Source of the DNA: Eremomyces bilateralis CBS 781.70
Taxonomy: Eukaryota
Assembly: GCA_010015585.1 (NCBI GenBank)
Contig: ML975151.1
Reading direction: 5' to 3' (one strand)
DNA: 60,272 nucleotides
In this document: positions 49,501-58,382 of the stretch, piece by piece
Layout of the letters: every line of letters begins with the position of its first letter
How positions within the stretch are numbered: position 1 is the stretch's first letter
Notes under the pieces: model-generated
Told to the model about the DNA's origin: nothing
Databases searched by the model: none
Seen by the model: the letters and a program-made list of their open reading frames with translations, nothing else
Made by a program: the position numbers and the translations under genes

Positions 49501-50895
49501 ATGCCCGCACCTTCCAACACCCTTCTCATTGAGGGGTCCTTCGAAGAATTAGCCGAAGAACTCGCCGTCTATATTGACAACCTCAGGAAAGATGAGGGCG
49601 CAAAGATCCAGGCCGATGTGGCTCCGCTGCTTCAGCAAGAAGGATCAAAAGATGAAGTCATGAAAAAGCTGGTCATCGGGTCGTCGGCCCTGAACAACGC
49701 GCCAGAGAAAGGTTCGCCCACGGAACCATGAAACGCTGCGGTATATCAGGATATATACTGACAATCCATAGAGTTCATTGCCGCATACAATCTCCTCATC
49801 CACCTAATCCAGCAAACGAAGAACCCAAACATGTTCCTCTCGAAAATTTGCCAATATCTTTCGCAACCGATTACCACCTCCCCGCACCACGGCCCCTCAC
49901 TCGCCCTCGCCGTCCTCAGCACCATCTTCAATGTCCTCTCCCCCGACGACGACAGCCGATATCACGTTCTTCTTGCCCTCCTCAGCGTCATCCGATCCGC
50001 CTCCGCATACGATCTCATCAAGCCACAACTCAAAGAACTGGACTCATGGATTGCGTCCTGGGAACTTGACGAGGATGATCAACGCAAACTCTACCTCGCG
50101 CTGAGCGACGTCGCGAAAGACTCCGGCGAGACCGATGCCTCATACACACACTTCGTCAGCGCCCTACGAACGATCCCCGCAGACGAATCAAATGACGAGG
50201 AGAGCCGAACGCTGGCGCTGAAAGGCCTGAAAGCCGCGCTGACCCACCCGAGTCACTTCGACTTCCAAGACCTCACCGAGCTCGACTGCATCCAAGCGCT
50301 CCGCAAATCCGACCCGCTGTACTTCGAGCTGCTGGAGATCTTCGCCGGCGAGACGCTGGAGGAGTACAATGACTTCAACGAGGCAAACGACGACTTCCTT
50401 GAGAGCAGCGGGCTGGATGCCGAGGTGCTGTACCGGAAGTTGCGGCTGCTGACGGTCGCATCGTTGGCGGCGTCGGCGCAGCAGACGCGCACGCTGCCGT
50501 ACTCCGTGATCGCGAAGGCATTGCTGATCCCCCAGGAGGACGTGGAGATGTGGATCATTGACGTGATCCGCGCGGGCCTCGTCGAAGGCAAGTTGAGCCA
50601 ATTGAACCAGACGTTCTTGATCCACCGCAGCACCTACCGGGTGTTCGGAGAGAAGCAGTGGCAGGAGGTCGCGTCGCGTCTGGACATGTGGCGGACGAGC
50701 CTGGTCGGCGTGCTGGAAGTGGTCCGGCAGGAGAAGGAGAACTACGTCGAGCAGGTGGGTCAGGAACAGCGGGAGATGGAATCAAAGGTGAATGGATACC
50801 AGAGGAGACAGGGTGGACGGCAGGGCCAGCAGCATCACCAGCAGAAGGAACAAAAGCCCAAAGTGGTGCCCTCGGATATTGATGATCGGGATTAA
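49501..50895 (+). CDS. eIF3m: Translation initiation factor eIF3 subunit M (PCI domain)
   Basis: MPAPSNTLLIEGSFEELAEELAVYID, intron 49712-49771 (APEK-EFIAAYNLL), RKLRLLTVASLA, EDVEMWIIDVIRAGLVEGKLSQLNQTF, YRVFGEKQW. Confidence 0.93.
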
Positions 50896-51093: not shown

Positions 51094-51798
51094 CTACGCC
51101 GTCGGATTCAACCCCTTCTTCTTCAACTCCGCCCGCACCTTCTCGTATACTTCTTCGGGCGTCGTAGTGGCCTCAATCCTAACCACCTTGCCTTGCTTCT
51201 CGAACATGTCCACCACCGGCATGCTGGTGTCGACGAACACCCTGAACCGCTTCTTGATGCTCTCCAGGTTGTCATCGGCCCGTCCGGACGTCTTCCCACG
51301 GACGATCAAGCGACTCTCCATAACCTCCTCGGGGCAGTCGAAGAACAGAATGAACCGAGACGGACACACCGTCTTCTCGAATTCGATCGCCTGGTCCATC
51401 TTGCGTGGAAACCCTAGAAACACATATCAATCAGCCAAACCCATCCGAAATTGCATCCAAAATCACCTACCATCGATCAAAAACCGATCCTTCCCCCCAT
51501 CCTTCATCATCTTTCCCATCGCCTTCTCCAACAGCGCAATCGTCACCTCCATCGGCACAATCGTCCCCTCTTTGATATATTCGTTGATCAGCTCCCCGAA
51601 CTGGCTCCCCGCGCGGTTCTGCTCCGCTCGCAACAGATCGCCCGCGCTCAGGTGCGCGAACCCGAAGTCCCGCACCAGGTACTCCGACTGCGTCCCCTTG
51701 CCGGCGCCGGGGCCGCCCAACACGAAGATGACGGTGACGTCGGAGGAGGAGTAGAGCGGTTTTTCGCGCTGCGGAAGCGGTGGCAGAGTGGGCGCCAT
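51094..51798 (-). CDS. URA6: Uridylate (UMP-CMP) kinase
   Basis: [16 protein letters not shown]-loop, [19 protein letters not shown] across intron 51414-51470, [19 protein letters not shown]. Confidence 0.95.
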
Positions 51799-51858
51799 GG
51801 CGTATCGAGATTCGAGGACGTCGGTAAGATAGAAGGTATTTATGTTAGGATGCGTCGC

Positions 51859-52140
51859 TCACGGTCCTGGACCCGGTCGTCGAGTTAGCGAATCGGGCGG
51901 AGCGGTGCCGGCGCGATCCCGCACGATGAGGGCGAAGAGGCCGGTTCCTGAGAGGAAGATGAGGGCGAAGGGCCAGAATTTGAGCTGGTTCTTTTGGGGA
52001 GGGTGCGGGCGCGGTTTCGGGGGACCGTTGGGGGTGGTGCGCGTGTGTGAGGAAACGAAGGTGCGTAAAGGAATGGAGGGATGGAGGTGGAGGAGAAGCT
52101 GTTGGGATGCACGCGAGGGCGGGATGAAGGGACTTCGCAT
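51859..52140 (-). CDS. 93-aa putative mitochondrial single-TM microprotein, upstream of and in frame with URA6
   Basis: R/S/L-rich N-terminus without acidic residues, with an R-x-F-x-S-like cleavage region (LRTFVSS), then a TM segment KFWPFALIFLSGTGLFALIVRDR. TGA at 51861-51859. Confidence 0.65.
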   Translation of the reverse strand: MRSPFIPPSRASQQLLLHLHPSIPLRTFVSSHTRTTPNGPPKPRPHPPQKNQLKFWPFALIFLSGTGLFALIVRDRAGTAPPDSLTRRPGPGP

Positions 52141-52799
52141 GGTCTTGGGGGAGAAGGGTTGGGATTATTGAGGGTTAGGTGGAAGGGTAGATGGAGATAT
52201 GATATCACGATATATTCTTTGCGGTGGGATTTAATACGATAGTATCAAATCCAGCACGTTGATCATTCCTTGGTCAATAAATGGTCACTGGCCATGGATC
52301 AGGAGCTCCTCTTCCTTGCAACAATTTCTTGCATTTCCATCGCCATCTTCCTTGTCACCCCAAATCACAACCTGGTCGGGACTCGGGAGCGTGACCGGTC
52401 GTTGGCGCCAAATAATATACTATTCTTGGCAGAGACTAGATTCAACTGGAGTCAAATTTCAAGCCACCGAAACTCTCATTTGATTCCAACTCAAGCTGTG
52501 ACACTAACGCCAGGCGGGAATACGAGAAAGCCGCGATGGCGCAGTCGTCCCTAATGGACACGCGCTGAACCGTCCGCAAAGAGCACCACATGTCTCTCTT
52601 CGCTTTGTAGTCTTCCATTATTCCGATGTTCATACTATAGCATATTTATTCTAATCACAAGTTGTCTTTTCGCTTCTCTACATGTCTTCCGGTACCCAGT
52701 TATGATCTTGTTCCGTACCATGGTGTTGTTTTGAGCATCCTCCATTGGGTATCCGATATCGTATTCCTGGTCTCCTGAGTCGACGGTCCGGTGACGAAG

Positions 52800-55700
52800 A
52801 TGTCTCTCCATAATCAAGGGCAGTATCAGGCCGGTGGTGCGCCCGCACTGGGTCAAGGTATGAGCATAGTTGCATTCAAGCTTATCGATATCGATATCGA
52901 TACTGACGGGCAGTCACATCAGCCGACCCTTCAGCATATCATCCGCCAGTGTCAGGCACTCCAACACCTCAACAGCAATCATGGCAGCCTCGTCCACAAT
53001 CCATCGCCAGTCCGCCTCCTCAAGCATGGAGTCAATCGCCGTCGACTGCCCAGCCGCCTCCTCCGACAAAATACCAGCAGCAGGCCGCGCAACATGGTCA
53101 TGCACCCCATGCTGGGTACAATCCCGCATCCTATGCGCCCATGGGAGGAGTGCAGGCACAGCAGGGACAATATGCTCAACCAAGCCAACCAGCTCAGGTA
53201 AAAATCGTACGCCGAATGCCACGATATAGTGCCACTGACATCGGAGTTGCAGAACCAACAGTATGCGGTTCCCCCAAGTCCGCACCAGACGCAACAAGTC
53301 CGGCCGGCCCATCAACCCCATCAGTATCAACCTCCGACGCCTCAGCAACCCTCCGCACCATCTCTACCCTCAGGATACCAAGCGGAGATCCAACAGAACC
53401 AGCAGGGTTGGCCTCAACATGCTCCATACTCGTCCCAGCCGCCGACACATCAGTATGAACCTGAGAGCCAACCGCTGGCTCAACCACAAGCGCAGCCGCC
53501 AGCACGGCGGCAGAGTCAATATCAGTACAATCCAGCACCGGACCAGCAATCACAACAGCAGCAAGCTCCGCAACAGCAGCAGACAAGCCAACGACCTCCA
53601 TCTGTGGACTTCTCCCCAATGAATGCTGGCACACAACAATACTTCCCTCCTCAGCAGCACGGGCGACAATCCTCAGTCGCCGGACAAGGATATGGCAGCG
53701 GGCAACAGCAAGTTACTATCGGGACTCCGAGTCAAGCATTCAGCACCCCGGATGAACAAAATCCAGCCTACATCCCACCTTCTCTGTCGGGTCAGGGAGT
53801 CACGGCTTATCAGGTCTCCAACACGAATCCTATGCCAGGCGTGTATATTCCCCCTCCGCCTGAAAATGTGCCGGCATGGTCGCCTCAGCAGCATGCTCCT
53901 TTGGCTCCTGGGACCAAGAGATTCAAGTACGCTCAGCCTTCGGGGAGCTTTGTTCAGAACACACACCCCCCGTCCCAGGTGTACCAACAGCAGCAACAAC
54001 AGCAGCCGCCCCAGCCGATGGCGCAGGGCGGACAATATCCTCCTCAGCAAGCACCGGCTACCCATGTACAGTACCAGCAGCCGGACCAACAGCAGCAGGC
54101 TGCTTATAACCCCCAGTTCGATGCGACGAACCCACAGATCCAGACCCAGTTGCCTCCCGTGCCGCCGCCGAAGGATCCTGTTCCAGGCCAAGCGCAGTAC
54201 AACCAGTCGCATTCGCAGCACTCGCAGTTGCAACAACCCTACCATCAACCACAGCAGGGCCAGCAACCTCCGCAGTTCCAGGCTCCGCAATGGATTCAGC
54301 CACAGGCCCAGCCACAGGCGCCCCCACCGCAGCAGTATGATCCGCATAGTCAAGCAAATGTACAGCAACCGCAGCCGCAAAGTGCACCTCCGAACTACCA
54401 GGCGACGACTGCTACTCCTCAAGCCTATGATCACCAACAGGCAGCAGCGCCACAGAATTTCCAGGCTTCGTCGTCCGCTCCCCAAGGCTACGAGCAAATA
54501 CAGCAGCAACCCGGTGCACCTCAGAATTTCCAGGGGATTTCCCAGCCGGCTCCTCAATCATACGACCAGCAACAGCAAGCGCCTCAGCAATATCAACAGC
54601 AACCGACCGAACAGTCCCAACATGCTGCACAGCAGACGCCGCGCCCTATGCAGTACGCTCCTCAGCAGCAAGCGCACCAGCCGCCACAAGATGCTGCGGC
54701 AGCCATGAAATTGCAGGGAGCGGCTCAACAGACCTACCAAAGCCCTGCTCCTCAACAGGCAGTCGCATCACCAACTCCTCAGATAGACATGCAGCAACAA
54801 TTTCAACCACCGATTGCGCCACAGCCAGGGCAGTATCAACCTCCTCAACCAAGTCAGTACAAGACGCCTCCCCCGCAACCGCAGATGCAGAGCCAACCCC
54901 CACCACAAATGCCTACTCAACCCGTATACGGCGCTGGTACACCCAGTCAAGAATCGAACCTGTACCAAAATCAACAATATCAAGTGCAGATGCCAAAAGA
55001 TTTATCTACTCAAGATAATCAACCGATATCCCCGGTGTCGCAGCTAGGGAGCATCAGCCTCGACTCCATGAGCCAGGTTTCTGGGCCGTCTAGACAAGAT
55101 TCCAATCAGTCCGTGCCGCAGGTTGGGCGGAAACCCGTCCCGGGCGCGGGGCGAGGACCACTTCCCCTGAGGCATGCATCCGTGAGCCAGACGCCGATTA
55201 CGTCGCAACGGCAGGACTCAGTTAGTCAACCGGTCGCGAATCCGAAAGAAGAAAAAGACCCGGCCAAACCAGAAATCAGCGCGTCCGTCCTCGGCTTTGG
55301 CGGGCCGTCTGATTGGGAGCATTTCGGCTCGATGGGCGATGGCGACATTGACGATACAGAGGCGTATGGCGCCAGCGAGCAGACCAATGATGATCAGCCC
55401 ACCTCGCCGCAGCAGTTGGATAGCACGGAAATCGGCACCAGGGCAGATGCAGTGGTGGATCAGAGACAGGATTGGCCAACCCCGCCCGGAGTCCATCGGA
55501 TGGACTCCATCAATAACCGGCCTGTATCAGCCACTGGAGATCTCCCGCCCCCGATGGATTTCGCGGAAAGTGGAGATGTGAAGCCGTCTACCGTCGCAGA
55601 AACCGTTCCCACCCCCGACCTATCAACCTCCACCGCTATGGAGGAGAGCGGATACTACCCCCCCATGCCCGAAGAACCCCAGCCCACCCCGCCCGCGACC

Positions 55701-58382
55701 CGCAAACCCATCGTCATCGGCGGCAGCCTCCGGAAACCCGTCCAACCCCGACCGGAAAGCGTGGCCGAAGAAGCGGGATGGTACCCGCCCATGCCGGAAG
55801 AGCCGGTGTCCGCTCCCCGAGAACGAGCATCAATTGTGATCGGTGGCAGCGCCCCGAAGCCAGCGCTGCAGGAAGAGGCGGCGGATGATGCCCCTTGGTA
55901 TCCGCCGATGCCGGAGGAAAATCCCCAGTCGGTAGCGCGTGAAAGGAAGCCGATTGTTATTGGAGGATCGGCGAAGGCTCCCGAAGCGGCTACGCCTATA
56001 GCAGGATCGTGTGTGATGGATGATAGTGCGATTATCATGGGAGACTCGAATATGGGTGCACCGCCTCCGAACGCCCAGAGGGATACGATCCCGGTACCTG
56101 CGGACACTCCGGTTGTGCATGACGTAGCACTTCCTACCTCGGTGCCTCCACCTCCAAGACTAGAATTTACTCACCCCAACGTCGTTGCGTCGACAGAGCC
56201 AATTACCGCCATTCCCGAACCCAAGGTCACCGCACCTGTCGACCCGCGCGGTGTCCTCGGCGAGTGGTATGCCGCGTCCCTGGAGCGCTACAGAGACATC
56301 CTCTTCCAGGAAGCGGCGGCGCCGACCATCGCGGAAAAATCCCGGCTCTTCACCTCGTTCGTGAAATACGAGTTGGCGCAGCGAAATATCGATTATCCGG
56401 TCACCCCTTCGTCGTCGAAGGGTGACGCCGAGTTGATGCATGCGGACAGACGATCGCCCAGCCCGGTGAGGGTTGAGGAGAAGCCGAGCCAGCTTAGAAG
56501 CGAGCCGGCAAGGCAATCGATGACCTCGCCTCTCCAGATGGACTCGTACGTGATGGTGGAGCCAACCGACGGGGAATATAGCCCCGGTGGCCGACCGATC
56601 CACCGCGGGCAGTTGAAGCGACAGCAGACTCTTCCGCTCGAGAGCGTCCCCCCCCCGACGACGGTTTCGAGAGCACAGTCCTTATCAGGGAACACCCCGC
56701 CCAGCCAACCGCCGTTAGCGTCGCCGGAGCACGTCGTCAAGTTCCCGAAACAGCGAGAGGGGTCGATCAGCCCGCTGCACAGTCGCCCGAGCACGGACAC
56801 GCCGCCGAGGACGGACACGCCACCTGGAGGGGTCTACAAGGCGTATCGTGGTGGATCGGTCGCAAATGATAAAAGTCAAGGGGAGCCGGCAAATAAGGCG
56901 GCGCATCGCGTGTCGCTGCCGCAGATACCGGATGATCCACCACAGCCGGCATATAAACCTTTCTCCGCAAAATTGCCAACAGAACCGGTCATCGTTCCAC
57001 CCCCGGCGCAACAGCCGCCCCCGGTGCAACAGCCGCAGCAGCCGCAGCAACAGGCAGTTATTCCGCCTGCGTTCGATCAAACACCCGGACAACCCCTCAA
57101 AGCGAGAAATCCCCATGATGAAGTCTTCTTTGAGGAACCGCAGCCAACGAAGCCAGCAAAGGAGCGGCCGGGGAGCGGAAATTATTCAAAATCTGGCTTC
57201 CCGGAGCTCGATAATCTGGCGTTTCTGGTTCCCGAGAAGATTGAGAAAGCTCGAGCTGGTCCACATCTAGAGGCATTGAGAGCGGCGTTTAACTCGTTTG
57301 GAAAGGACTTTAGCTTTTTAGCTGCAATCCTGAAAGACTGGGAAGTCAAAGCTACGGATACCCGGACCAAGCTCGATGCGGAGCGCCGCACACGCGAATC
57401 GGACGCCGAGCGACGAAACGACGAGTTATTCGCGTCGCAGGAGATCTCATACGGCGACATCAACGACCTTGAAAGCGCCTTCAACGAAGAAGAGCGCACG
57501 AAGAAAGACGCCGAAGACAAGAGCGAGTGGGAAAGCTACGTCCGCGAGGTCTTCGACCCTAGCTATAGCCGCCTGCAAGAAGAAATCCGCCAAATCATGG
57601 AAGTCTACGTCAAAGTTGAAGACCTCCTCCGCCACGACGCCATCGCCGGCGTCGTCGCACTTTCCCCTTTCGCCTCCGACGACGACGACACCCTCGACGA
57701 CACCCGCCCATCCATCCCCGCCGCCACCCGCCTTCTCACCGACGTCTACCAGCGCATCGACGTCTGCCACAAAGCCGTCACCGACACCGTTGCGGAGCGC
57801 GATCGACGCTACAAGAAAGCCGAGGTGCGCCGCCTCTACGCCGCGAACAGCATCCAGAAGATGAAGACAATGGAAAAACACTTCGAGCAGGCGGAGAAGG
57901 CGGCGGTGCTGCGCGCCAGCCAGGAGCGCGCGGACCGGGTGCGGCGCGCGTGGGAGGTGGTCTCGGCGTCGACGGAGCGGGCGACGCGGCAGAACGGGGG
58001 GGACGTGGCGGCGATCGCCGCGGCGGCGGATCGGATGTTTCCCGGGCTAGAGTTGCGGAAGGCGGGGATGGATGGGGGGGGGAAGGGGCGGTTGAAGGAG
58101 GTGGTGGGGCAGGCGACGGGGGCGGTGGAGGCGCTGACGGAATCGTCGGAGGGGTTAATGCGGGGGTTCCACGAGTTGGATTTGCTGCTGAGTCAGGTGG
58201 AGTTCGATATCAGCGTGGCGGCGTCGCGGATTGAGAATGCGTCGGCGGAGGCACTGGGGGGGTTGGAGGCGCAGAAGAGGGTGGAAGATCGGAGATTGGA
58301 TACGGAATTTGAGAAGCATATGGGGACGTTGAAGAAGGAGTTGGATCTGGGGAAGGAAATGCTGAGGAAACTCTCGATCTGA
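52800..58382 (+). CDS. Very large Q/P-rich low-complexity protein with a C-terminal helical/coiled-coil domain
   Basis: Exons 52800-52857, 52923-53197, 53253-58382 splice in frame. Q/P/Y-rich N-terminal third, LGFGGPSDWEHFG, EYSPGGRP, charged helical C-terminus. Confidence 0.85.

Follow-up and report, generated by a model that had tools for sequence, protein, structure and literature searches.

A conserved small gene ahead of URA6 in Eremomyces bilateralis and its probable role as leader of the kinase gene

In the yeast genes FUM1, HTS1 and VAS1, the position of the transcription start relative to an upstream AUG selects the mitochondrial or the cytosolic product, and start-site-dependent choice of the AUG is already known. 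Fungal readthrough isoforms, of the peroxisomal PGK/GAPDH type, are made across a stop in the context TGA-CTA. The locus described here, a small open reading frame (ORF) directly upstream of the UMP/CMP kinase gene URA6 in Eremomyces bilateralis CBS 781.70, can be set beside both. In FUM1, HTS1 and VAS1 both AUGs belong to one ORF, whereas here a stop intervenes, and the product of the long mRNA is another protein and not a targeted enzyme. With the TGA-CTA isoforms it shares an open frame past a TGA, but its context is not TGA-CTA, and neither the identity of the stop nor the frame is conserved to yeast. Further, the IGG1/IGG6 bicistrons, in the portion of PMC10352335 consulted, have two ORFs separated by a few bases within a single transcript, an arrangement resembling this one, and work by re-initiation, whereas nothing was found in our locus that points to re-initiation.

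The MIN9-URA6 pair of Saccharomyces cerevisiae has the same design, with a small ORF encoding a presequence and one transmembrane (TM) segment immediately 5' of URA6, in the same orientation and across a very short gap. The supplement to PMC5494306, as far as consulted, lists the 75-residue product of MIN9 (YKL023C-A) as a class-1 mitochondrial protein of the matrix or inner membrane and Ura6 (YKL024C) as class 3, outside the mitochondrial class; the main text of that paper contains nothing on MIN9. On chromosome XI, MIN9 (393373-393146) and URA6 (393140-392526) are separated, by the coordinates in the consulted part of the PMC4434318 supplement, by 5 nt and are out of frame, so that readthrough cannot fuse them in yeast; the adjacency stated in the original prediction is thereby confirmed. 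The dominant start sites of URA6, in the data extracted from two studies, fall at 393365 (PMC3973313) and 393363 (PMC7265651), inside MIN9 and 8-10 nt past its ATG, the first of them 225 nt upstream of URA6. The same extract of PMC3973313 flags the MIN9 call as internal and gives a poly(A) site for URA6 and none for MIN9. Among 1,538 wild-type start-site reads in the consulted part of PMC4434318, 1,379 are internal, 54 MIN9-ATG-first and 105 uORF-first, and only the last class increases without Upf1. About 90% of the reads therefore lack the MIN9 AUG; the source labels the internal ones 'phased', and we infer that they are URA6-first because Min9 has a single Met. From these published start sites, then, the body of MIN9 is the leader of URA6 in yeast. 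The consulted parts of PMC12843841 and PMC11430078 hold nothing on MIN9-URA6 coupling or on a fused isoform, and a literature search, with most subscription journals and bioRxiv supplements outside its reach, listed no description of a conserved protein gene that is the leader of an essential enzyme and, in sister classes, is spliced to that enzyme.

The small gene, its family and its main product

The window, that is, the whole 60,272-nt stretch of contig ML975151.1 analysed, carries the pair on its minus strand (Table 1). Re-reading bore out the layout first claimed, in which the small ORF ends CCG TGA and exactly 60 stop-free nucleotides lead to the in-frame ATG of URA6. Each of the two has a single match in the genome. 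The kinase is of the Ura6 type, with an ADK domain that includes a P-loop, is of the short-LID type and lies near fungal Ura6; Pfam ADK matches its two exons (E 3e-23 and 2e-9), and the database matches carry the names uridylate or UMP-CMP kinase. A convergent eIF3m gene (49700-50895, plus strand) ends about 200 nt from the 3' end of URA6. Rfam gave no notable match in the stretch of the window searched.

Table 1. Features of the microprotein-URA6 locus, in window coordinates
Feature	Position	Strand	Basis
Six ATGs opening ORFs of 6-15 codons, farther upstream	52266..52479	-	
C/T-rich tract 5' of the microprotein ATG; presumed start-site region	52141..52200	-
ORF of the microprotein (93 aa), with a presequence-like N-terminus, a single TM helix and a short tail, polar and carrying R-x-G-T-A-P-P	51859..52140	-	Translation, family profile
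Presequence-like region (residues 1-54), basic and free of acidic residues	51979..52140	-	Composition; mitochondrial targeting presumed
TM helix, residues 56-76; motif K-[FIV]-W-P-F..I...G, conserved Arg76	51913..51975	-	Alignment, structure model
Candidate intron (58 nt) taken out in the public 80-aa model; unlikely to represent the main form	51867..51924	-	Removes Arg76 and tail motif; no joint in run X1
Position equivalent to the Leotiomycete-like splice donor (G there, then GT); the window has G, then GC	51907..51909	-	Locus comparison
TGA stop, next base G; no stable stem 3' of the stop	51859..51861	-	Folding; no other letter in run X1
Spacer of 60 nt without a stop in the frame of URA6; lacks ATG and AG acceptor, has a single CTAAC (51848)	51799..51858	-
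URA6 (UMP/CMP kinase) exon 1, start context GCC-ATG-G, ATG at 51798	51471..51798	-	Pfam ADK
Intron of URA6 (57 nt), found spliced in run X1	51414..51470	-
URA6 exon 2 up to TAG; full protein 215 aa	51094..51413	-	Pfam ADK

Residue composition, hydropathy and a structure model agree with the presequence-like N-terminus and single TM helix noticed at the outset. Residues 1-54 comprise 8 R/K, 10 S/T and no D/E, the best 19-residue hydropathy (2.0) starts at residue 55, and the modelled protein has one helix, at 56-76. The DNA of the presequence-like part is C-rich and weakly folded, and its first ATG is its only one. The product would be a single-pass protein of the mitochondrial inner membrane.

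A profile built on four such ORFs retrieved 197 representatives at E<=1e-3, which upholds the claim that the small ORF is a genuine gene. Among the 150 listed of these, 134 are stand-alone ORFs of 72-245 residues with the TM motif, 5 include the kinase and 11 lack the motif pattern used. Across 62 aligned members, on which a second profile search was built, Arg76 is invariant and P57, I61 and G65 nearly so; the tail motif R-x-G-T-A-P-P is found in 7 of the 134 stand-alone matches (again among the 150 listed) and in P0025. The 20 stand-alone ORFs that were looked up include members from Aureobasidium, Ophiobolus, Cucurbitaria, Neofusicoccum, Delphinella, Elsinoe, Dothistroma, Aspergillus saccharolyticus and Astrocystis. 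Pfam holds no family for the ORF, with none of the four members matching and single weak matches only among the 62; a PDB search with the family profile gave no match, and a direct search with the 93-residue ORF returned its own public model (P0121) alone. Its Atlas neighbours are small mitochondrial membrane subunits, every score being under 0.9, and are taken as a lead only. Pattern scans of prokaryote genomes yielded a single match, a chance one to Cas7, and those of viral contigs none, and the family alignment is too variable to serve a locus scan. On the strength of its sequence relatives, the 93-codon ORF is a real and conserved gene of a fungal family without a Pfam or PDB match.

The proposal that the linkage to URA6 is ancient, MIN9 being its yeast counterpart, finds support in synteny and layout; sequence homology to Min9 was shown by no search, and no yeast protein was recognised among the family-profile matches (150 of 197 listed) or in the second profile search. 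Min9 and the microprotein both have a single C-terminal TM segment, fewer than 100 residues and no internal Met. They differ in length (75 against 93 residues) and in the gap to URA6 (5 nt out of frame against 60 nt in frame), and by eye Min9 lacks the W-P-F motif of the family. Synteny and layout suggest that the two may be orthologous.

The public model P0121 of this locus, of 80 residues, splices out 58 nt (51924-51867). This intron candidate, absent from the original prediction, is textbook-looking, with donor GTGCGG at 51924, branch CTAAC at 51888 and acceptor CAG at 51867. Run X1, which we guess to be RNA and which comprises contigs with rare forms dropped, shows no joint anywhere in 52140-51798, though the introns of URA6 and eIF3m (60 nt, 49712-49771) are spliced there. 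Since the 80-residue reading drops Arg76 and the tail motif common to seven stand-alone matches, and its joint is absent from X1, it was rejected as the main form, and the main product of the small ORF is likely the 93-residue form. A 156-nt splice from 51924 to 51769, which would fuse the ORF to the kinase, was likewise rejected as the main form: Arg76 is lost, X1 has no such joint, and the nearest branch lies 80 nt from the acceptor. Of what was first said about this splice, the weakness of the branch site stands and splicing past the TGA is not supported. Editing of the TGA likewise finds no support in X1, a single run of unknown stage in which contigs drop rare forms, and which has no altered letter there, A-to-G or other. 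The 80-residue model, and the forced fusions annotated in Dothideomycetes, are likely errors of gene modelling.

A 6,671-nt contig of run X1 (record 6) starts in URA6, covers all of the divergent intergenic region and continues in the direction of the large plus-strand gene at 53619 (window 51216-52800 and beyond). It could reflect long leaders, transcriptional read-through or the presence of DNA in the run, and because it also crosses the divergent intergenic region it is no proof of one microprotein-URA6 transcript.

Fused and stop-separated relatives

The long 'uridylate kinase' models of other fungi carry the same presequence and TM module ahead of Ura6 as the window pair. The module precedes the kinase in 103 of the 120 best matches to the read-through query, which settles the early question of whether some species carry a fused form. 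Fused models, of 290-350 residues, come from Leotiomycetes, Sordariomycetes, Pezizomycetes and Orbiliomycetes. The junction is uniform in Leotiomycetes and Sordariomycetes, where 19 of 25 and 34 of 49 models, respectively, have a Met exactly 3 residues past the conserved Arg; in 15 fused models of Dothideomyceta it is scattered or lacks the Met, matching what is expected of forced gene models. Since six single-ORF calls from Logan, ENA and JGI contigs are also fused, the fusion is not merely a product of annotation.

Relatives with readable DNA were three Pezizomycotina loci (L002, L003 and L005) among the 80 metagenome loci listed in a scan that also drew in bacterial adk. In the Leotiomycete-like L005 a 186-nt intron joins the two parts, with a GTACGT donor, a GCTAAT branch and a CAG acceptor two bases 5' of the kinase ATG. 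The long models thus differ from the window pair in being intron-joined, and their module tolerates Met; the GT donor and AG acceptor at the Leotiomycete positions are absent from the window, L002 and L003. It appears that in Leotiomycetes and Sordariomycetes an intron joins the module to Ura6 to give a membrane-anchored kinase, and Pezizomycetes and Orbiliomycetes probably make the same intron-joined fusion. The membrane-anchored kinase foreseen by the original prediction would accordingly exist in other classes, by way of an intron whose sites are absent here. To judge from the presequence, TM segment and basic residues, the catalytic domain of the fused form probably resides in the intermembrane space, and the internal Met kept in fused models would be the start of soluble Ura6.

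The intron of L005 (2313-2498) contains a conserved DNA element of about 17 nt, which shows up as identical bases translated in three frames across 18 of the 134 stand-alone calls (P0124-P0233; 150 of 197 listed). It is a candidate promoter element for soluble Ura6; Rfam gave no match of note for the intron. Contigs of up to 195 kb encode the module and Ura6 in one open frame with a G-T/G-V linker (P0085/P0283/P0284 and P0087/P0286), apparently an intron-free open fusion and a third state of the locus. The module is absent upstream of the kinase in a protist-like locus (L004) and a basidiomycete-like one (L006). The UMP-CMP kinase of the former (1700-2396) carries a targeting-like stretch at its N-terminus and, ahead of the P-loop, an additional domain. 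At the top of the kinase search stand tandem two-domain UMP-CMP kinases (P0001-P0007, P0010), some labelled as dinoflagellate or algal.

The two remaining Pezizomycotina loci resemble the window in that a stop separates the parts. In L002, near Aureobasidium P0122, a TAA is followed by 3 nt in frame to the kinase ATG, and in L003, near Ophiobolus P0129, by 9 nt in frame. All three filamentous stop-separated loci (spacers of 60, 3 and 9 nt) are therefore in frame, and the yeast pair is out of frame. Only L002 and L003 are unselected, for which the chance is 1/9, and the open in-frame spacer of the window is by itself not beyond chance because 58% of dinucleotide shuffles are also stop-free (times 1/3 for the frame), as the original caveat anticipated.

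Proposed start-site choice and its rivals

We consider it reasonably probable that the small ORF and URA6 belong to a single transcription unit and share their 3' end, and that the first AUG picks the product, long mRNAs giving the microprotein and shorter mRNAs or leaky scanning giving Ura6. The pair would be served by one promoter region and one 3' end. Transcripts beginning upstream of 52140 would encode the microprotein, and on those beginning just past this ATG ribosomes would scan 339 AUG-free, weakly folded bases to make soluble Ura6, with the TGA acting as a true stop. An alternative supply would come from ribosomes leaking past the microprotein ATG, which is less likely than shifted starts because the context of that ATG is good (ACC-ATG). 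Start-site choice is shown by published data for the syntenic S. cerevisiae pair and would extend to this fungus by analogy. Among the options first put forward, an internal start site fits best with the yeast start-site data and the AUG-free body, and the argument that so short a distance obliges the small ORF to share transcribed DNA with URA6 remains sound. The six upstream ATGs would behave as uORFs on over-long transcripts; the NMD-sensitive uORF class of yeast, in the published data consulted, sits where the window has these ATGs.

Scanning predicts that no AUG lies between the two starts, and there is none, in any frame, in 339 nt of the window, 357 nt of L002 and 273 nt of the partial L003. 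The significance is modest after composition (P per locus 0.12, 0.07 and 0.20 by base shuffles, 0.36-0.64 by dinucleotide shuffles). Of 92 coding segments of 339 nt in the window, one is free of ATG, and the same exon of the intron-type L005 has six. The region folds no better than shuffles. In the module, internal Met makes up 1 of 1,797 residues in 22 Dothideomyceta (one of them this locus's own model), against 40 of 1,982 in 25 Leotiomycetes and 42 of 4,617 in 49 Sordariomycetes, while kinase-domain Met is alike across the three classes (2.5-3.3 per 100). This contrast rests on the TM segment (1/552, 29/575 and 15/1,127, in the same order), whose columns related species share and do not supply independently, because the part before it is Met-poor in every class (0/1,068, 1/1,057 and 7/2,804). 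The absence of AUG is partly compositional, the DNA being C-rich, and the AUG-free body lends moderate support to scanning. Neither re-initiation nor readthrough would need such a body. The in-frame state of all three filamentous spacers is left unexplained by start-site choice.

That in-frame state is what recommends low-level readthrough or editing of the TGA, by which a membrane-anchored Ura6 would be made in place of the intron of other classes, possibly alongside start-site choice; fused forms are also widespread and, in P0085 and P0087/P0286, apparently intron-free. We give this little credence. Besides the small unselected sample and the out-of-frame yeast gap, the stop and its next base change from TGA-G in the window to TAA-A in L002 and TAA-C in L003, no stable stem follows the window TGA (folding, z -0.2), and run X1, whose contigs drop rare forms, has no changed letter. 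Of the hallmarks of programmed readthrough, TGA-CTA is present in none of the three loci, which agrees with the initial caveat on the TGA-GCG context, and a downstream stem is absent from the window; neither spacer sequence nor spacer peptide is conserved across loci. Two overlapping genes with their own promoters, URA6 starting near its ATG in the 3' half of the ORF or in the spacer and the microprotein mRNA running on into URA6, would suit the C/T-rich and AT-rich stretches within ORF and spacer, and species of the intron type do need an internal promoter for soluble Ura6, for which the conserved intron element is a candidate. However, such a promoter would find no room in the loci whose spacers measure 3, 5 and 9 nt, the yeast start lies far upstream of URA6, and an ORF free of AUG throughout would be needless, so that we regard this arrangement as unlikely.

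A single bicistronic mRNA on which ribosomes re-initiate at URA6 after the microprotein would be in keeping with the very short spacers, and re-initiation after full ORFs does work in fungi with the 9-nt linker of IGG6, according to the consulted portion of PMC10352335. It is nevertheless improbable here, given that most yeast start-site reads are without the MIN9 AUG, that AUG depletion would be needless and that no spacer sequence is common to the loci. Least credible, and indeed very doubtful, is alternative splicing from 51924 to 51769 for a fused kinase and to 51867 for the 80-residue variant. The canonical-looking signals of the 58-nt candidate and its use in P0121 speak for it, but both variants lose Arg76, the distant branch disfavours the fused one, and run X1 has neither joint while two other introns are spliced there. 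In a wider scheme, ascomycetes would retain an undescribed membrane-anchored mitochondrial UMP/CMP kinase by different routes: splicing in Leotio-, Sordario- and Pezizomycetes and an open fusion without further device in a few others. Dothideomycetes would use either low-level readthrough of the in-frame stop on the long mRNA or a free microprotein acting as anchor or partner of Ura6. Start-site choice on the same promoter would then give soluble Ura6, and Min9 would be a split-off anchor; we hold this only as a speculative and rather unlikely scheme.

Meaning and neighbouring observations

Start-site choice at this locus would be an example from nature of a gene for a conserved protein that also serves an essential enzyme as its 5' leader. 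The fusion partner being a UMP kinase, a functional lead is offered for the microprotein family and, through synteny, for Min9 of yeast. Further, a membrane-anchored mitochondrial isoform of Ura6 is predicted in Neurospora-type fungi, which bears on the supply of pyrimidine nucleotides to fungal mitochondria.

Two observations concern the DNA beyond the microprotein gene. Divergent from it, an ORF of 1,587 residues (53619-58382, plus strand) has a long, low-complexity N-terminal half rich in Q and P and a helical-looking C-terminus. A short palindromic repeat of GATATC units (52889-52905) lies in the intergenic DNA on the upstream side of the microprotein gene.
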